A stretch of DNA of 64,000 bases, taken from assembly GCF_024502345.1 (NCBI RefSeq), contig NZ_JALDNN010000001.1; one strand, 5' to 3'. Shown here piece after piece: positions 25,382 to 33,709 of this stretch (its first letter is position 1; every line of letters begins with the position of its first letter). The notes below the pieces were generated by a model, which did not search any database, was not told where the DNA came from, and saw only the letters and a list, made by a program, of their open reading frames with translations. Source of the DNA: Escherichia coli. GTDB taxonomy: Bacteria > Pseudomonadota > Gammaproteobacteria > Enterobacterales > Enterobacteriaceae. The position numbers and the translations under genes are program-made.

Positions 25382-26629
25382 ATGGCACTGAATATTCCAT
25401 TCAGAAATGCGTACTATCGTTTTGCATCCAGTTACTCATTTCTCTTTTTTATTTCCTGGTCGCTGTGGTGGTCGTTATACGCTATTTGGCTGAAAGGACA
25501 TCTAGGGTTGACAGGGACGGAATTAGGTACACTTTATTCGGTCAACCAGTTTACCAGCATTCTATTTATGATGTTCTACGGCATCGTTCAGGATAAACTC
25601 GGTCTGAAGAAACCGCTCATCTGGTGTATGAGTTTCATCCTGGTCTTGACCGGACCGTTTATGATTTACGTTTATGAACCGTTACTGCAAAGCAATTTTT
25701 CTGTAGGTCTAATTCTGGGGGCGCTCTTTTTTGGCCTGGGGTATCTGGCGGGATGCGGTTTGCTTGACAGCTTCACCGAAAAAATGGCGCGAAATTTTCA
25801 TTTCGAATATGGAACAGCGCGCGCCTGGGGATCTTTTGGCTATGCTATTGGCGCGTTCTTTGCCGGCATATTTTTTAGTATCAGTCCCCATATCAACTTC
25901 TGGTTGGTCTCGCTATTTGGCGCTGTATTTATGATGATCAACATGTGTTTTAAAGATAAGGATCACCAGTGCGTAGCGGCGGATGCGGGAGGGGTAAAAA
26001 AAGAGGATTTTATCGCAGTTTTCAAGGATCGAAACTTCTGGGTTTTCGTCATATTTATTGTGGGGACGTGGTCTTTCTATAACATTTTTGATCAACAACT
26101 TTTTCCTGTCTTTTATGCAGGTTTATTCGAATCACACGATGTAGGAACGCGCCTGTATGGTTATCTCAACTCATTCCAGGTGGTACTCGAAGCGCTGTGC
26201 ATGGCGATTATTCCTTTCTTTGTGAATCGGGTAGGGCCAAAAAATGCATTACTTATCGGTGTTGTGATTATGGCGTTGCGTATCCTTTCCTGCGCGCTGT
26301 TCGTTAACCCCTGGATTATTTCATTAGTGAAGCTGTTACATGCCATTGAGGTTCCACTTTGTGTCATATCCGTCTTCAAATACAGCGTGGCAAACTTTGA
26401 TAAGCGCCTGTCGTCGACGATCTTTCTGATTGGTTTTCAAATTGCCAGTTCGCTTGGGATTGTGCTGCTTTCAACGCCGACTGGGATACTCTTTGACCAC
26501 GCAGGCTACCAGACAGTTTTCTTCGCAATTTCGGGTATTGTCTGCCTGATGTTGCTATTTGGCATTTTCTTCCTGAGTAAAAAACGCGAGCAAATAGTTA
26601 TGGAAACGCCTGTACCTTCAGCAATATAG
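25382..26629 (+). CDS. cscB: Sucrose:H+ symporter CscB (MFS, oligosaccharide:H+ symporter family)
   Basis: 415 aa 12-TM ORF recognised as CscB. Confidence 0.9.
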   Translation: MALNIPFRNAYYRFASSYSFLFFISWSLWWSLYAIWLKGHLGLTGTELGTLYSVNQFTSILFMMFYGIVQDKLGLKKPLIWCMSFILVLTGPFMIYVYEPLLQSNFSVGLILGALFFGLGYLAGCGLLDSFTEKMARNFHFEYGTARAWGSFGYAIGAFFAGIFFSISPHINFWLVSLFGAVFMMINMCFKDKDHQCVAADAGGVKKEDFIAVFKDRNFWVFVIFIVGTWSFYNIFDQQLFPVFYAGLFESHDVGTRLYGYLNSFQVVLEALCMAIIPFFVNRVGPKNALLIGVVIMALRILSCALFVNPWIISLVKLLHAIEVPLCVISVFKYSVANFDKRLSSTIFLIGFQIASSLGIVLLSTPTGILFDHAGYQTVFFAISGIVCLMLLFGIFFLSKKREQIVMETPVPSAI

Positions 26630-27069
26630 ACGTAAACTTTTCCGGTTGTTGTCGATATCTCCCTATCCCTCAACCGGAAAATAATAATACTAAAGTGCTT
26701 AGCCCTGCTAATAATCACCTAATCCAAACGCCTCATTCATGTTCTGGTACAGTCGCTCAAATGTACTTCAGATGCGCGGTTCGCTGATTTCCAGGACATT
26801 GTCGTCATTCAGCGACCTGTCCCGTGTATCACGGTCCTGCGAATTCATCAAGGAATGCATTGCGGAGTGAAGTATCGAGTCACGCCATATTTCGCTATCA
26901 GGATTCTGTGTGATGGTTACATCGCCCGGCCCAGGGCTGTTTAGTCATCAGCGCTTTCTGACAGTGCTGAGATTTCAACCTGTTGCAGTAAAAATGAGTA
27001 GATATAAGGCAAGTGTGCTGCCAAACCCATCTTTTACGGGGTGAAGGTAGATTTCGTATGAAGGGTATC

Positions 27070-27084
27070 TGGTGTCCCCTGCAG
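27070..27084. repeat. 15 nt direct repeat of the argW 3' end (TGGTGTCCCCTGCAG); candidate prophage attR core
   Basis: Exact match to the first 15 nt of the reverse-complemented argW 3' end at 38480-38494. Confidence 0.5.
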
Positions 27085-27157
27085 ACATCTACTTGAAGCG
27101 GCAGGGGATTGATTGGAATGGTATTTTTTAGATGTGAGAAATATTTTACCCGCTATT

Positions 27158-27358
27158 TTACCCATTGGCGCGGCTTAAGAGCTTATTTTTGAATTCACAA
27201 TGGTCACGATATAACCATCTTGCTCGCCCGTGGATAACTTTGGCTTTTGGAAGGTCTCCGGACTTAATCCGATCATAGATGAAGGTTTTACCGAAGCCAG
27301 TATCGGCCATGATGAATTTCAAATCAACCAGTGAATCAGGCTGTAGTTCGTGTTGCAT
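27158..27358 (-). CDS. torI: TorI-like excisionase / recombination directionality factor (AlpA family)
   Basis: 66 aa ORF (MQHELQPDSLVDLKFIMADTGFGKTF…), recalled as matching K-12 KplE1 TorI; sits at the prophage edge opposite intS. Confidence 0.8.
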   Translation of the reverse strand: MQHELQPDSLVDLKFIMADTGFGKTFIYDRIKSGDLPKAKVIHGRARWLYRDHCEFKNKLLSRANG

Positions 27359-27377
27359 GAGTGCTATCTCCGAATAG

Positions 27378-27393
27378 GGAATCGAACCTGCAA
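27378..27393. repeat. 16 nt fragment identical to the argW T-arm (GGAATCGAACCTGCAA); not a tRNA gene
   Basis: Matches argW positions 38494-38509 (reverse-complemented strand) but flanking sequence cannot form an acceptor or T stem. Confidence 0.4.
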
Positions 27394-27493
27394 ATCAGGC
27401 AATAAAAAACCGCATTGATGCGGCGATGGTAGGTCTGGATATCATTGAGCAATGAACAGGCATCATCGAGTGTGAGGCGGTGTTATTTTATGG

Positions 27494-27838
27494 TTAGTCC
27501 TTGCGTAGCTCTCTGATTCTTCTGTAAGTCTCTGGTGCTTTGTTTCCGTGTATCTTCATTTCCGACTTCAACAGAGCAACTAGGGAATCCCATTCGTTGA
27601 GGATTCCTTTGAATGCCGGAACGCGCTTTGCAACCTTGTCGAATGAATCTCTGATTTCTGGAATCTGCTCAACAAGCGCAACGCATCGTTGGAAATCGTC
27701 TGCGTCATGGGGAGCGCCGAAGTGATGACCATAGATATTCTTTTTCAGGCCACATGCGATTGAGGCAAGAGTTGCGCTACTGATGCCGACATCGCCAGTT
27801 GATTGCCATTTCAAAACCTTCATAGCCAAATCTGACAT
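27494..27838 (-). CDS. Hypothetical prophage protein
   Basis: 114 aa ORF in the pL-driven leftward gene string; no family recognised. Confidence 0.45.
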   Translation of the reverse strand: MSDLAMKVLKWQSTGDVGISSATLASIACGLKKNIYGHHFGAPHDADDFQRCVALVEQIPEIRDSFDKVAKRVPAFKGILNEWDSLVALLKSEMKIHGNKAPETYRRIRELRKD

Positions 27839-27938
27839 TTCTTGTCTCCATAAAACAAAACTCGCCGTAGCGAGTTCAGATAAAAGAAATCCCCGCGAGT
27901 GCGAGGATTGTTATTCACCTTTTACGGCAAGTTGCAGG

Positions 27939-28232
27939 TTAGCCACGGTTAACCTCCTGAGGCGGTTCTGGTAGCGGCATCCAGTGGGTTACTTTCGATG
28001 CCGGTTCTTCCCCATCGTCAGTAACTGCCCACCATTTGTTTCTCGACCAATCGTAATACCCTTCGAAGGTATCGCACTCAGTCCAGCCGTAAGACTTACC
28101 CCAACACCAAACATACTGTTTATCGTTCGGCATTCGCTCACTACAGCTTATCCAACCAGCGTTTGTTTCGTTAGCGTCCTTAGTGTGTTCATCTGGTTTA
28201 TATGAGCGAAGCATTTCGCTTAGCGTAATCAT
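27939..28232 (-). CDS. DUF551-domain phage protein
   Basis: 97 aa ORF ending …THWMPLPEPP, typical of DUF551; first ORF downstream of pL/nutL. Confidence 0.6.
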   Translation of the reverse strand: MITLSEMLRSYKPDEHTKDANETNAGWISCSERMPNDKQYVWCWGKSYGWTECDTFEGYYDWSRNKWWAVTDDGEEPASKVTHWMPLPEPPQEVNRG

Positions 28233-28295
28233 TGCAAAGCGCCTCCGCCGAGAAGGTTAGCTTCTGCATTCACCCCAAAGTTCACTTTGGTTATT

Positions 28296-28310
28296 GCGCT
28301 TTGTCAGCGC
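28296..28310 (-). promoter_or_regulatory. Putative nutL boxB hairpin (GCGCUGACAAAGCGC on the leftward transcript)
   Basis: Perfect 5 bp stem with GACAA loop about 75 nt downstream of the pL start; resembles P22-type boxB, not lambda boxB. Confidence 0.4.
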
Positions 28311-28378
28311 CGTAGATTCATATTTGAATCGTTGTATATTCACCGCCCTGGTGAGTAGTGCGTCCTGCTGATGTGTTT

Positions 28379-28441
28379 AGTATCACCGCCAGTGGTATTT
28401 ATGTCAACACCGCTAGAGATAATTCATCACCGCAGATGGTT
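28379..28441 (-). promoter_or_regulatory. Lambda-type pL promoter with OL1, OL2, OL3 operators
   Basis: OL1 TATCACCGCCAGTGGTA (28381-28397) identical to lambda; OL2 (28405-28421) and OL3 (28425-28441) each differ from lambda at one position; -35 TTGACA and -10 GATACT on the minus strand. Confidence 0.8.
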
Positions 28442-28627
28442 ATCTGTATGTTTTTTATATGAATTTATTTTTTGCAGTGGTGCATTGTTTGGTAGGTGAG
28501 AGATCTGAACTGCTATGTTTAGTGAGTTGTATCTATTTATTTTCAAATAGATACAATTGGTTATGTGTTCTTGGGTGAGGGGGATCGTGAGGCAAAGAAA
28601 ACCCGGCTCTGTGGCCGGGAATAACAT

Positions 28628-29006
28628 TTAGGAATCAAGGTCAGGTAGCATGATTTTCTCAATCAACGTCAATGCCCTTTGGTCTCGTTCAGCAAAATAT
28701 TTAGGAGCGTACTGAGGCAGCCACACTTCGTTGAAGTATTGTTTGAAATCTGCAATATTCGTTTGGGTATAGACGTACCGGGAATGTCCGGCCATCTGGG
28801 TACTCATGGTTATATGTTGGGAATGTCTTCGGCTCAACCCCCCGGTTGTCACGGAGCCATTGCGAGAAAACCCTACCCTCTGAAATATCAGGGACCATTT
28901 TTTCTGGCAGCGTATATCCGGCCTGTTCAAGTGGCGCAACCAAGTTAAACGTCAGTTCATTAAGCATAGAAAAGTGCGTATGAGGAACTCTGCCTCGGTT
29001 TGTCAT
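28628..29006 (-). pseudogene. Two overlapping ORFs in different frames downstream of the KilA-N ORF; possible frameshifted C-terminal part of an antirepressor-like gene
   Basis: ORFs 28701-29006 and 28628-28939 overlap out of frame and directly follow the KilA-N ORF. Confidence 0.3.
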
Positions 29007-29045
29007 ATACCGCTTAAGGTGGATAGGGAGTTCGGCAGGCGCTCT

Positions 29046-29387
29046 TTAACCTGACATCCACTCACGCACCCATCTCGATACTTGCACTGCAAATTTTGGA
29101 GATAGCCACTGAGCTAAATTAATTGCGATGTCTGGATGAACCCAAGTCCCTTGATTCTCTGCTCTTCCGCCTTTAAATGATTGAATTAACTCCGATATGG
29201 GAATCCCCATATCGCGTGATAATTCATCAAAAAAATCTTGTGTTGTTTTTAGTCGTGTATAGTCAGCAAGTAGCTTCCCCGCAGACTTGCACATCGCGGT
29301 GGCATTGATGTATCCGTCTTTGGTGCGAAGATGGATGACTTCTCCATCAACTTCTCTAGCGATTAATGCAAGTTGAAATTGTGTCAT
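29046..29387 (-). CDS. KilA-N domain protein
   Basis: 113 aa ORF with KilA-N-like N-terminal domain; immediately downstream of cI. Confidence 0.55.
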   Translation of the reverse strand: MTQFQLALIAREVDGEVIHLRTKDGYINATAMCKSAGKLLADYTRLKTTQDFFDELSRDMGIPISELIQSFKGGRAENQGTWVHPDIAINLAQWLSPKFAVQVSRWVREWMSG

Positions 29388-29418
29388 AAATCATCCTATT
29401 ACGTGAAAAATAAAACAA

Positions 29419-30135
<717 letters not shown>

Positions 30136-30142
30136 TTAAATC

Positions 30143-30207
30143 TATCACCGCAAGGGATAAACTTCTAACACCGTGCGTGTTGACTATTTTACCTCTAGCG
30201 GTGATAA
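30143..30207. promoter_or_regulatory. Lambda-type OR3-OR2-OR1 operators with PR and PRM
   Basis: OR3 (30143-30159) and OR2 (30165-30181) identical to lambda; OR1 TACCTCTAGCGGTGATA (30189-30205) has one G-to-A change; PR -35 TTGACT and -10 GATAAT. Confidence 0.85.
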
Positions 30208-30232
30208 TGGTTGCCTGTACTAAGGAGGTTGT

Positions 30233-30433
30233 ATGGAACAACGCATAACCCTGAAAGATTATGCAATACGCTTTGGGCAAACCAAGACGGCTAAAGATCT
30301 CGGCGTATATCAAAGCGCGATTAACAAGGCCATTCATGCAGGCCGAAAGATTTTTTTAACTATAAACGCTGATGGAAGCGTTTATGCGGAAGAAATAAAG
30401 CCCTTCCCAAGTAACAAAAAAACAACTGCATAA
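30233..30433 (+). CDS. cro: Lambda-type Cro repressor
   Basis: 66 aa [69 protein letters not shown], near-identical to lambda Cro. Confidence 0.9.
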
Positions 30434-30440
30434 GTAACAC

Positions 30441-30486
30441 CGCTCTTTTCACAATGGACATTCGTCCTACGTCGCTGACAAAGCGA
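30441..30486 (+). promoter_or_regulatory. Putative nutR (boxA-like CGCTCTTTT and boxB-like hairpin TCGCTGACAAAGCGA)
   Basis: Position immediately downstream of cro; boxB-like stem-loop with GACAA loop at 30472-30486; spacer longer than in lambda. Confidence 0.4.
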
Positions 30487-30570
30487 GCCCCAAGATATCT
30501 GACCAACTAAGGCCATATGCGTTTCCACGCATACCTTTCAACTAACTATTCACTATTGGAAAATTAACAA

Positions 30571-30867
30571 ATGACACAAGCAAGTTATAGCAAGCCAACA
30601 CAGCGAGAAATTGATCGCGCTGAAACTGATTTACTCATCAACCTGTCAACGCTTACCCAGCGCGGTCTGGCAAAGATGATTGGCTGTCATGAATCGAAGA
30701 TAAGCAGAACGGACTGGAGATTTATTGCTTCGGTCTTGTGTGCTTTCGGAATGGCATCAGACATCAGTCCGATTAGCAGGGCTTTTAAGTATGCATTGGA
30801 TGGAATCACAAAGAAAAAATCCCCGGCTGCCACCGAGGATTCTGAGCAAATTGATATGCAATTCTGA
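30571..30867 (+). CDS. CII-like transcriptional activator
   Basis: 98 aa ORF; C-terminus KKSPAATEDSEQIDMQF parallels lambda CII KKRPAATERSEQIQMEF; conserved position after cro/nutR. Confidence 0.6.
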   Translation: MTQASYSKPTQREIDRAETDLLINLSTLTQRGLAKMIGCHESKISRTDWRFIASVLCAFGMASDISPISRAFKYALDGITKKKSPAATEDSEQIDMQF

Positions 30868-31047
30868 GGGAATTACTGGATCAATCCACAGGAGTAATTA
30901 TGACAAAACGTCGTAAGAAATACCAGGAAAAAGAAGAGATTCGACACCCTGATTCACCTGAGGGATTAGTGGTAGCCGCAGCAAATAACAGGGCGTTCGC
31001 AGAGCGCCTTGTTGGTGTTTACAGACTAGCCAAAGCAGGAGTGAAAC

Positions 31048-32193
31048 ATGGGCGTCGTTAAGTTAGCTGATTACAGGCCTCAACTGGAGGTCGTGGAGCA
31101 TCGCGTGGCAGATACCGAAGATGGTTTCATGCGCGTTGCTAACGAGATTACTCAATATCCAGACCAGATTGAATCCGTTCGTAAAGGCATGGGATTCATT
31201 GATGAAGACCAGCGTAATTCTATCGGCACCTTAGCGGCTGGCGCACGCCTTGCGTCATCGTCTCCAGAAGCAATGCAATCATGGCTGCAAAACAACGCCG
31301 GTGAGTTAGCTCGTGTTGGCGTTAATCCTCATGACGTCGCTCAGATGTACCAACAGAACCCGCGGCAGTTCGTCGAATTTGTCGATCACCTGGGGATGAA
31401 CAGTCTCGGGCCCGAAAAATACTTTGACCTACAGGATAAAATGCAGGGTCGCCAGGTTACCATGCGCGGTCAGGATCTGGATTCGCAAACCGCCGCTCGG
31501 AATCAGGCAATCACAATGCGCGGACAAGATATCCAGGCGAATTTAGGTCAGCAGCGCATTAATCTGGACGCAGAAACAAACCGCATTAACAACGAAAATA
31601 AGCGCCTTGACCGGATGCTATCAGCAGAAACTAACGACCTGAAGCGCCAGGAAATACAGAGCCGCATAGCAGCCAACAACCAGCAGTTGCAGCAGAAGCA
31701 GCAAGCGCTAAATGATGGCTACAAAGACGGCATCAACACCCTCACAACCAGCATGTTCACTCTGAACGATATCGTTAGTTCTCCTTCACTTAAGAGCATT
31801 ACAGGCTTACGTGGAGTAATCCCCAACGTTCCAGGCTCACAGGCTGCAGACACTCAGGCACGACTTGATACCTTTAAATCACAAGCATACCTGACAGCGG
31901 TTCAGGCCATGCGAGGCATGGGCGCACTTTCTGATGCCGAGGGCAAAAAGCTCGACCAGGCTGTTGGTTCGCTGCAGAACTCGCAGAGCGAGGAGTCCTT
32001 TCGTCGCAACGCTGGCGTCATCCTGAACACGCTCAACCAGAAGCGTAATGAGGCGGTTGGTAAGTACGTTCAGCAAAACGGTATCAAGCGAGTGGAAGCG
32101 CCTCAGGCTTCTATAGATTACCTGAAGCAGCACCCCGAGCTGTCAATCGACTTCATTAATCGCTACGGATATCTTCCATCTTTGGGGCAGTAA
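31048..32193 (+). CDS. Hypothetical phage protein, Gln-rich with predicted coiled coil
   Basis: 381 aa ORF immediately upstream of, and abutting, the transglycosylase gene; no family recognised. Confidence 0.5.
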   Translation: MGVVKLADYRPQLEVVEHRVADTEDGFMRVANEITQYPDQIESVRKGMGFIDEDQRNSIGTLAAGARLASSSPEAMQSWLQNNAGELARVGVNPHDVAQMYQQNPRQFVEFVDHLGMNSLGPEKYFDLQDKMQGRQVTMRGQDLDSQTAARNQAITMRGQDIQANLGQQRINLDAETNRINNENKRLDRMLSAETNDLKRQEIQSRIAANNQQLQQKQQALNDGYKDGINTLTTSMFTLNDIVSSPSLKSITGLRGVIPNVPGSQAADTQARLDTFKSQAYLTAVQAMRGMGALSDAEGKKLDQAVGSLQNSQSEESFRRNAGVILNTLNQKRNEAVGKYVQQNGIKRVEAPQASIDYLKQHPELSIDFINRYGYLPSLGQ

Positions 32194-32649
32194 ATGGCTA
32201 ATTACCGTGATTTGTTAGAGCAGGCTGGCGCACGTTACGGTGTGCCAGAAGGGTTGATGACTGCACTGGGTGCCAAGGAGTCTTCTTACAACCCTGCCGC
32301 AGTAAGCTCCGCCGGGGCTGTAGGATTGACTCAGGTCATGCCTGGGACATGGCGTGATATGGGTTATACCGATGAGCAAATGCAAAACCCCGAATATCAA
32401 GCTGACGCTGGCGCGCGCTATCTGGCAAAGATGTACCAGCAGTTTGGTAACTGGCGTGACGCTCTTCAGGCTTATCACGACGGTCCCGGCAACGTTATGA
32501 AGGCAAAGCGTGGTGAATATACGCCAGGACCTGAAGGCCGCGGTTACGTTGATGATCGCTTTGCTCAATGGGCGGGTGACCCGGTGACAGACTCAACAGT
32601 CGAACAGCGCGCCACCTCTGCAAAGGTACCTTTGCTGATTGTTATCTGA
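32194..32649 (+). CDS. Phage lytic transglycosylase (SLT domain)
   Basis: 151 aa ORF with an SLT-domain-like catalytic region (…GAKESSYNPAAVSSAGAVGLTQVMPGTW…). Confidence 0.65.
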   Translation: MANYRDLLEQAGARYGVPEGLMTALGAKESSYNPAAVSSAGAVGLTQVMPGTWRDMGYTDEQMQNPEYQADAGARYLAKMYQQFGNWRDALQAYHDGPGNVMKAKRGEYTPGPEGRGYVDDRFAQWAGDPVTDSTVEQRATSAKVPLLIVI

Positions 32650-33127
32650 TGTTACTGCTACTGTTGCATGTTACCGTGTTTCCAAATCCTGAATTGCAGT
32701 TTGTATATGTGTCAACGCGTGTTGGGTAAGGTTGAGTTATAACAGGCTGGCGCGCTTTTTGCTCGATCGCTTGCATTGTGTTTACAGCCTGATAATTCAA
32801 TAAAGCCTGCTGGAATGCTTGGCTTTGTGCTATTTGTTGGGCTTGTTCTTGGCTTTGTAATTGAACATAAAGATTCTGAAGCTCAAGTCTTGCCTGTGCG
32901 TCACTTATCTTGCCTTCATCGACACCTTGCCCGAGCATCTTTGCAGCAAGGACATACAGCTTAGGTGTTGGTGCTGATGCCATGCGTGAGTCGTTCTTCA
33001 CACTGGCATCAAGGCAATTAGCCATATCGCTAAGCTTTTGATAGCGTTGTTCGCAACTTGCTTGATAGTCACTTACTTTTGCGCATCCAACCAGCAGAAG
33101 CGGGATAATTAACAGTGATTTTTTCAT
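32642..33127 (-). CDS. Phage-encoded lipoprotein (candidate lysogenic-conversion or exclusion moron)
   Basis: Lipobox LLVGC after the signal peptide MKKSLLIIPLLLVGC; start placed at the internal Met of ORF 32642-33163. Confidence 0.5.
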   Translation of the reverse strand: MKKSLLIIPLLLVGCAKVSDYQASCEQRYQKLSDMANCLDASVKNDSRMASAPTPKLYVLAAKMLGQGVDEGKISDAQARLELQNLYVQLQSQEQAQQIAQSQAFQQALLNYQAVNTMQAIEQKARQPVITQPYPTRVDTYTNCNSGFGNTVTCNSSSNIR

Positions 33128-33197
33128 ATGGTTAACTCTCCTTAGTTTTTCACAGGATATCATGAAGGCTATGCCATTTTAGCCGGAAACTAGATTT

Positions 33198-33464
33198 CTA
33201 TGTTTCCTTTTTATTATTGCTATACATGGTCTTAAGCGTTTCAAATACCATTTTCTTAACCATATCAGATTGTTGTTCTGCCATACGCTCTGCATCATCA
33301 ATGTAAACGGATGCAGAGCTTTGTTTAGCCAACGATTCTTCAATCGCTGCAATTATCTCTGAGTTCAGAGATCTGTTATTCATCTTCGCACGCTGCTTAA
33401 TTTTCGCGTGGAGTTCATGCGGAAGTCTCAAGTGAAACTGCGCCTCATCGTATTTGCTGTACAT
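33198..33464 (-). CDS. mnt: Mnt-like ribbon-helix-helix repressor
   Basis: C-terminal …DDAERMAEQQSDMVKKMVFETLK… parallels P22 Mnt …NDAERLADEQSELVKKMVFDTLK…; start placed at the internal Met (about 88 aa). Confidence 0.6.
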   Translation of the reverse strand: MYSKYDEAQFHLRLPHELHAKIKQRAKMNNRSLNSEIIAAIEESLAKQSSASVYIDDAERMAEQQSDMVKKMVFETLKTMYSNNKKET

Positions 33465-33709
33465 CCTTGATGCCTCACCAGTTGGGTGGAATGGCATCGT
33501 AACCTACTGGATAAATACTCAATAGTACCATTTCGGTATGCAATCACATCATGGTTGCATCATATCATCGTCTGGAGCAATGAAATGTCAGATATCACCG
33601 CAAATGTTGTGGTAAGCATGCCTTCGCAACTCTTCACTATGGCGCGTTCTTTTAAAGCGGTTGCCAATGGTAAAATTTATATCGGTAAAATTGACACTGA
33701 CCCGGTAAA

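Follow-up and report, generated by a model that had tools for sequence, protein, structure and literature searches.

In phage P22 the repressor gene mnt is followed by arc, ant and the tailspike gene 9. What does a Mnt-like repressor do when its gene directly faces a tailspike gene, with neither arc nor ant present? The question is raised by a stretch of 64,000 nucleotides of Escherichia coli DNA (hereafter the window). A preliminary description, made from the sequence alone, noted such a gene pair in it, cited the P22 order as given here, and pointed to an ATGCAA…TTGCAT inverted repeat in the intervening spacer. If the operator was retained, it suggested, expression of the tailspike could be under Mnt control. 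The locus is a mnt-only “ant moron” of the P22 family in a defective argW prophage, for which sequence comparison lets us propose an autoregulatory mechanism that we consider rather probable.

Identification of the Mnt-Like Repressor

The mnt-like gene is located on the minus strand (33198–33464) and encodes a protein of 88 amino acids. In Pfam, the open reading frame (33198–33464/33497) matched Arc (PF03869; 1.1e-14, above the curated cut-off) and Repressor_Mnt (PF11423; 3.9e-12). Both domains that characterize the Mnt family are present: an N-terminal Arc-like ribbon-helix-helix (RHH) DNA-binding domain, identified by Pfam Arc and by the structure of P22 Mnt (PDB 1MNT, E-value 9e-19 over 73 residues, 1MNT residues 3–75), and a C-terminal coiled-coil tetramerisation domain, identified by Repressor_Mnt and by the structure of the corresponding domain of Mnt (PDB 1QEY, 1.5e-6). 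The protein is 47% identical to P22 Mnt. The gene is therefore Mnt-like, as had been proposed, and its product is a RHH repressor of the Mnt family, predicted from homology to be a tetramer. The β-strand is the DNA-reading element in the Arc/Mnt fold; it has the sequence QFHLRL in the window protein, vs. HFNFRM in P22 Mnt. An identical (100%) protein is present in many intact prophages. NCBIfam and PADLOC yielded nothing informative for the mnt-like gene, the adjacent lipoprotein gene or the spacer.

Two in-frame ATG codons could serve as the start of the gene, one at 33497 (99-aa product) and one at 33464 (88 aa, MYSKYDEAQFHLRL…; MYSKYDE). We take 33464 as the start, because PGAP uses this position for the identical protein in E. 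coli genomes, because the homologous leader stretch contains an in-frame stop in ST64T and Gally (our own translation of the sequences), and because 8 out of 8 substitution types in the leader of relatives are non-synonymous (our own reading of the variants). On these grounds the 99-aa start is disfavoured. The leader of the mnt-like gene (minus strand, 33465–33497; from the list of open reading frames and PGAP) then holds the in-frame ATG at 33497 and an inverted repeat, GATGCC-N18-GGCATC, and the spacer between mnt and the tailspike gene comprises 33465–33584 (120 bp).

The Tailspike Gene Is Interrupted and the Prophage Is Defective

The tailspike gene starts on the plus strand with an ATG at 33585, preceded by a ribosome binding site GGAG at 33574–33577, and its head-binding domain begins at this ATG (Pfam Head_binding, 3e-24). 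This confirms that the two genes diverge across about 120 bp, as described. The 5′ fragment (33585–33725) consists of the first 47 codons of the head-binding domain (profile positions 1–48). After codon 47 the gene is split by an IS3-family element of 1,334 bp with IS2-like OrfA and OrfB (minus strand, 33726–35059; Pfam HTH_Tnp_1, rve, and rve_3). The 3′ remainder (plus strand, 35061–37026) encodes the rest of the head-binding domain (profile positions 51–113) and the receptor-binding part. In a comparison with the intact prophage of E. coli Z142-1 (L005), the window is 99% identical up to 33725 and the alignment resumes at 35060.

The prophage has also lost genes upstream. The open reading frame at 31048–32193 consists of approximately 35 residues of an O-like replication protein fused to a gp20-like ejection protein from approximately residue 98 (PHROG). 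The prophage genes between these two (replication, nin, Q, lysis, head) are missing; a single deletion thus removed them. The gp16-like SLT transglycosylase gene (32194–32649) is truncated to 151 aa (profile positions 1–145 of 576). Neither the late promoter nor an intact tailspike gene remains in the window. With the tailspike gene reduced to a pseudogene and the late operon deleted, there is no longer any tailspike expression here that could be controlled.

The gene order in the window is truncated gp16-like SLT gene, lipoprotein gene, mnt, tailspike. The lipoprotein gene (minus strand, 32642–33127) lies downstream of mnt and encodes a predicted lipoprotein of 161 aa (PHROG 6067, 1.6e-110). 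A signal peptide with a Cys (MKKSLLIIPLLLVGC) can be read from its sequence, and Pfam, PADLOC, and NCBIfam gave no assignment. This cargo gene is probably co-transcribed with the mnt-like gene.

The absence of arc and ant, also part of the preliminary description, was substantiated by tblastn over the 64-kb window with Arc and Ant of P22, E. coli 55989, and CUS-3 (E ≤ 1). No arc or ant was found, and just two chance-level Arc matches of 14–23 residues (E 0.29 and 0.45) were obtained, far outside the prophage. No match to the sar RNA or any other Rfam family was present in 32500–33800, and no terminator-like site was found in the spacer. In an immI region of the P22 type, mnt is divergent from an arc-ant operon driven by Pant, and the sar RNA and a terminator are located between ant and gene 9. 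In the window, the tailspike gene lies beyond the spacer, and both sar and the terminator are lacking. The arrangement is that of the mnt-only “ant moron” of the L/ST64T type, with mnt divergent in the interval between the gp16 homologue and the tailspike gene and without arc or ant.

The Arrangement Is a Known and Common Variant

The locus resembles P22 immI in its homologous two-domain repressor, in its location between the ejection-protein genes and the tailspike gene, and in its orientation antisense to the late operon. The control region is likewise colinear: a palindrome-type site stands where P22 has Omnt, and a putative leftward promoter where it has Pmnt. Apart from the lack of arc, ant, sar, and the ant terminator, it differs from P22 in the β-strand, in the site at the Omnt position (GTACC-ATTTC-GGTAT, which is less symmetric than GGTCCACGGTGGACC of P22), in a degenerate Pant -10, and in carrying an unrelated lipoprotein gene in place of sieA.

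A mnt-only “ant moron” was already described in 2008 (Villafane et al.; PMC2629481). According to that study, the moron of ST64T, ST104, and Para1 holds only mnt and one further gene; the prophage region of E. coli B7A is shown in its Figure 3. In the Salmonella phages L, ST64T, and ST104 (PMC2629481; Zaworski et al., 2021, PMC8022706), mnt is directly divergent from the tailspike gene, without arc, ant, and sieA, as it is in the window. Phage L is a near-twin of ST64T, and in both of them mnt and gene 9 are separated by 135 bp. Their spacer is homologous to that of the window, including the GATGCC…GGCATC repeat and the palindrome at the Omnt position. They differ from the window in their specificity class (QFNLRL, with the perfect palindrome AAGACCACCGTGGTCTT), in having the P22-type boundary sequence CCGTAGCC…TTGCATCTGGAGCA as tailspike leader, and in their cargo gene (orf62).

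The closest relatives are Sf101, IME10, and the prophages of E. coli B7A, O26:H11, and others, which share the module including the spacer at 96–99% DNA identity (96% for the mnt-spacer-tailspike module of the isolated phages Sf101 and IME10, 96.5% for the B7A prophage). In these phages and prophages, which are intact, the tailspike gene is unbroken, whereas the window copy has the IS in the tailspike gene, a 1-nt deletion in the spacer (120 vs. 121 bp) and the large internal deletion. The layout also recurs, with a related mnt, in phages VSe13, Gally, and vB_EcoP-720R6, so that both the module and the layout occur in viable isolated phages. Of the 5,426 complete E. coli genomes, about 225 contain at least 80% of the spacer query, and about 100 more carry a second spacer class (class B, described below). 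The arrangement is therefore known and common, and not peculiar to the window. Since the window locus is a dead prophage with a published variant of the P22 ant moron, its importance by itself is minor.

Two scans of IMG/VR yielded 159 loci with a QFHLRL-type repressor. In 137 of these, a clean spacer of 100–160 nt (nearly all 120–135 nt) leads straight into the tailspike start; the remaining loci end with the contig, are interrupted by an IS or HNH insertion, or contain a frameshift. The tailspikes beside QFHLRL mnt have several different N-termini. Downstream of mnt, the gp16-like gene follows directly in about 43 loci, and the lipoprotein gene of the window type is found in about 43; in about 50, a separate ant operon that encodes an Mnt1 and an Arc of its own, and sometimes SieA, converges on mnt, as in E. 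coli 55989. Among the 159 related viral loci, none had arc or ant divergent from QFHLRL mnt, and the co-resident immI of E. coli 55989 has a different palindrome, TTGGTTCTAGAACCAA. The mnt gene beside the tailspike is thus, on both counts, a stable and separate unit.

Two further features of these loci were observed. A single ant moron can hold two Mnt-type repressors, in the order mnt1(RFNIRL)-arc-ant-orfX-orfY with a convergent QFHLRL mnt that faces the tailspike gene; examples are E. coli 55989 (L007, 1413–4160) and about 50 IMG/VR loci (e.g., L097, L095, and L111). An HNH endonuclease gene is inserted at the tailspike start, so that it separates the tailspike gene from the mnt-like gene, in E. 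coli PK8568 (L009, 4157–4666) and in IMG/VR locus L039.

A Candidate Operator and a Putative Leftward Promoter in the Spacer

We aligned the window spacer and those of seven relatives with the P22 mnt-arc control region (alignment A1). The window spacer is colinear with the Pmnt/Omnt/Pant region of P22, with invariant columns CAAT..CCA....GG. The alignment with Pant/Omnt of P22 that had been proposed as a check thus shows a colinear region with an operator-like site, but the P22 operator sequence is not kept.

On the minus strand, TTGAGT (33517–33522) aligns with the -35 of annotated P22 Pmnt (TTGAGA), and TACGAT (33496–33501) with its -10 (TATCAT); these two hexamers would form the leftward mnt promoter. 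The -10 block GGCATCGT is unchanged in 23 of 23 diverse spacers, and the TTG of the putative -35 (CAA on the plus strand) is invariant among diverse spacers. The two elements are 15 bp apart in the window, which is suboptimal, and 17 bp apart in relatives with the class B spacer, the 133–135-bp type of E. coli 55989, 81EVA, and phage VSe13. A consensus sigma-70 scan did not report this promoter.

Operators of the Mnt family are approximately 17 bp long, two-fold symmetric and located beside the repressor's own promoter. Just upstream of the putative -35, at the aligned position of P22 Omnt, the window contains a pseudo-palindrome of 15–17 bp, GTACC-ATTTC-GGTAT (33525–33539), which we consider the candidate operator; in alignment A1 the P22 operator AGGTCCACGGTGGACCT stands opposite AGTACCATTTCGGTATG (33524–33540). 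The arms are perfect for 4 bp only in the window (TACC/GGTA), for 5 bp in the divergent relative L155 (GTACC-GTTTA-GGTAC) and for 6 bp in L057 (CATACC-ATTTC-GGTATG), and in the window class they are weaker than those of P22. One exact copy of the candidate operator is present in the window, and likewise one in a full prophage; a search of both for a second copy gave only chance matches with 3 mismatches.

The sequence at the Omnt position varies in step with the β-strand type in three repressor classes. The class HFNFRM (P22 and CUS-3) has the P22 operator sequence given above, the class QFNLRL (ST64T and Gally) has AAGACCAC(C/A)GTGGTCT, and the class QFHLRL (window, Sf101, VSe13, and E. coli 55989) has (G/A)TACC-N5-GGTA(T/C). 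Within the last class, GTACC-n-TTT-n-GGTA is invariant among relatives whose RHH-coding half differs at 35–37 of 144 nt (pS 0.83). Among these divergent relatives, CAAT-n-GTACC-n-TTT-n-GGTA and the -10 block are the sole long invariant stretches of the spacer. That the specificity of Arc and Mnt is set by N-terminal residues is established (Knight and Sauer, 1989, as cited in PMC3413123). Because the site pairs with the β-strand class and is invariant in divergent relatives, the operator has most likely been retained in position and architecture, its sequence having presumably been altered to match the altered recognition strand. The possibility of a retained operator is thus borne out by an operator-like element at 33525–33539, but this element corresponds neither to the P22 sequence nor to the ATGCAA…TTGCAT repeat. 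The paired classes also form a small natural data set on change of specificity in RHH proteins.

A possible second operator, TACCATATTGGTA (TACC-N5-GGTA), was rejected, as it lies inside the gp16-like gene, in conserved coding sequence and at a variable distance. It is present within this gene in about 20 related loci (e.g., IMG/VR L017, 5546, and L092, 7730) and most likely is simply conserved coding sequence.

Inverted Repeats and Possible Hairpins in the Spacer

The ATGCAA…TTGCAT repeat of the preliminary description exists in the form ATGCAATCA-N5-TGGTTGCAT (33538–33560), just right of the candidate operator, with 8 of 9 positions complementary. It is, however, at chance level: 19% of dinucleotide-preserving shuffles of the spacer yield an inverted repeat at least as good. 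The repeat is confined to the 120/121-bp spacer class and is absent from class B and divergent spacers. In class B, which is accompanied by the same encoded DNA-binding half, the P22-type tailspike leader (…CCGTAGCCATGCTGCGGCGATTCCTTGCATCTGGAGCAA…) stands there instead, and homology between the two spacer types ends at approximately 33543. Since class B shares the DNA-binding half yet has unrelated sequence at this place, we rejected the repeat as operator; it probably has no operator role. It was also considered as a hairpin in the plus strand RNA of the tailspike leader. Its fold z-score is -0.55 on this strand (-2.1 on the minus strand), and about 4 of 6 substitution types keep the pairing, which is near chance; some variants do so via G·U. 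This candidate was likewise set aside.

The inverted repeat GATGCC-N18-GGCATC (33469–33498) adjoins the mnt start and overlaps the putative -10. It is kept in QFHLRL spacers, ST64T, and Gally but not in P22, and in L057 compensating +1/-1 indels preserve its 18-nt spacing. A hairpin in the mnt leader RNA was rejected as an explanation, as the fold z-score is only -0.97 and the left arm overlaps the putative -10, which would place the hairpin outside the mnt transcript.

In the common 121-bp spacer, an ATG at 33538, inside the ATGCAA…TTGCAT repeat, is in frame with the tailspike open reading frame and would add a 16-residue N-terminal extension; the 1-nt deletion of the window destroys this frame between ATG 33538 and the tailspike open reading frame (33537–33587). 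The extension is probably meaningless, because the canonical tailspike start has the GGAG site. Tailspike leaders of the class B type contain a possible 7-bp hairpin, CCGTAGC-CAT-GCTGCGG (e.g., L008, 4117–4133). P22 (L004) has the box aaaattcACCGTAGCCA twice (2741–2775 and 2861–2895), about 120 bp apart, after the ant terminator; the annotation of CUS-3 names such leader stretches “boundary sequences.”

No Recognizable Rightward Promoter

A consensus scan of the spacer (33465–33584) for sigma-70-like promoters gave no match on the plus strand. The only match overlapping the spacer was a weak leftward one, CTGACA-16-GATGAT, which starts inside the tailspike codons; it was set aside, as its sequence differs in class B spacers. 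At the position of the P22 Pant -10 (TATATT), ST64T has TATATC, the window TAAATA, class B CAAATC, Gally TGCATC, and L155 TAACTC. The final T, which is invariant in -10 elements, is lost everywhere except in P22. In the P22 group the late operon is considered to have a single promoter (PMC8022706), and transcription gets to gene 9 by reading through the moron (PMC2629481). With no rightward promoter either recognizable or conserved, Mnt control of the tailspike is unsupported, and it is simplest to assume that this gene is not switched by Mnt. A weak rightward promoter or a roadblock effect of Mnt may nonetheless exist at the spacer.

The suggestion that the tailspike is under Mnt control therefore lacks support: the plus strand has no promoter-like site, the Pant -10 is degenerate and the tailspike gene is broken in the window.

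Possible Function of the Orphan mnt Gene

We regard autoregulation as the probable role of the orphan mnt. The Mnt-like protein would be made from the prophage and bind the candidate operator (33525–33539). Binding would chiefly set the level of mnt's own transcript, which would include the downstream lipoprotein cargo gene. The bound protein would also cover the spot where Pant transcription starts in P22 and might in this way bar residual rightward initiation from the tailspike gene in lysogens. For intact relatives we propose the P22 mode of tailspike expression, in which antiterminated transcripts from the single late promoter read through to the gene, and not a release from Mnt. In the window, the IS splits the tailspike gene and the late promoter region has been lost, which leaves just the repressor with its control region intact. 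Binding, promoters and transcript starts in this scheme are deduced from sequence. The scheme in its pure form leaves two features unexplained, the linkage to the tailspike start, seen in practically every locus with legible and unbroken DNA upstream (137 of the 159 have a clean spacer), and the retention beside a separate complete mnt-arc-ant module.

The mnt-like gene is under purifying selection. In its first 48 codons, variable sites number 14, 5, and 41 at codon positions 1, 2, and 3; in the RHH half of the most divergent pair pN is 0.12 vs. a pS of 0.83 (pN/pS approximately 0.14); and the open reading frame is intact in 151 of the 159 related loci and also in the decayed prophage of the window. 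For the orphan mnt of phage L, Zaworski et al. (2021; PMC8022706) posed the alternative of “another function or a remnant.” The second of these, in which a gene without function persists from a degraded immI by linkage alone, would fit the degenerate appearance of Pant and the decay of the surrounding prophage. We nevertheless consider it very improbable, as the selection on the gene argues against a decaying remnant and as the operator-like block has not changed even where synonymous divergence approaches saturation; selection and the conserved site together tilt the question of the phage L authors toward function. Selection on a gene whose target in cis is gone, and which is intact in a decayed prophage, could also point to a function in trans, in which the orphan repressor silences the antirepressor promoter of incoming phages with the same operator and so shields the resident prophage against induction upon superinfection. 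Such a role of Mnt is established in P22 lysogens (summarized in PMC11016777). For the QFHLRL class it appears unlikely. None of the 159 viral contigs has arc or ant divergent from QFHLRL mnt, so that a matching operator-ant unit was not encountered in any of them, the co-occurring ant operons have their own Mnt1 and Arc and the different palindrome of E. coli 55989, and neither the window nor the full prophage holds a second good operator copy.

Control of the tailspike itself, by a promoter in the spacer that Mnt represses through a retained operator (the ATGCAA…TTGCAT repeat in the original proposal), would account for the finding that QFHLRL mnt stands beside a tailspike start in virtually every informative locus, whichever of several N-termini the tailspike has and even where a separate mnt-arc-ant module exists. 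The candidate operator is moreover located where Pant transcripts start in P22, and a possible role of Mnt and Arc in the amount of transcription that reaches gene 9 has been raised before (PMC2629481). We nonetheless hold this to be quite unlikely, given the lack of a sigma-70-like site on the plus strand of the spacer, the degenerate and variable Pant -10 position, the chance-level repeat that is missing from relatives with the same DNA-binding domain, the single promoter ascribed to P22-type late operons (PMC8022706) and, in the window, the disrupted tailspike gene. A more speculative variant, doubtful though conceivable, is that the tailspike-linked QFHLRL Mnt is no immI relic but a selected regulator, acting in lysogens as a gate or roadblock at the tailspike entrance. 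If so, transcription from upstream moron promoters, including that of a co-resident ant operon, would be kept out of the tailspike gene and from running antisense into the serotype-conversion genes beyond it. This would explain both the strict linkage to the tailspike start and the coexistence with a separate full mnt-arc-ant module. Sf101, IME10, and the E. coli O26 prophage would be convenient systems for studying the function of the orphan mnt.

Chromosomal Context and the Insertion Element

The prophage of the window adjoins intS and tRNA-Arg(CCU) (argW), beside yfdC, mlaA, and fadL. An inversion of the prophage relative to int was considered and discarded, as other E. coli genomes also have the order argW-intS-tailspike, as does K-12 CPS-53. 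The flank at 38600–43800 (yfdC, mlaA, fadL) is at most 98.4% identical to any of the 5,426 complete E. coli genomes, and the arrangement of 26600–38400 as a whole occurs in none of them. The host thus belongs to a somewhat divergent lineage of Escherichia or Shigella that this collection lacks.

Other E. coli genomes hold 100% identical copies of the IS3-family element. The copy in the window (33726–35059) is flanked by a direct target duplication of 15–17 bp (33710–33725 and 35061–35076; tcctgaaaaccagat(t)), and two further 100% identical E. coli copies (L172 and L173) are flanked by duplications of 15–16 bp (gttactggcaattac and caacgagctacatgcc). Target duplications of the IS3 family usually measure 3–5 bp, and a consistent duplication of approximately 15 bp is unusual for an element of this family.
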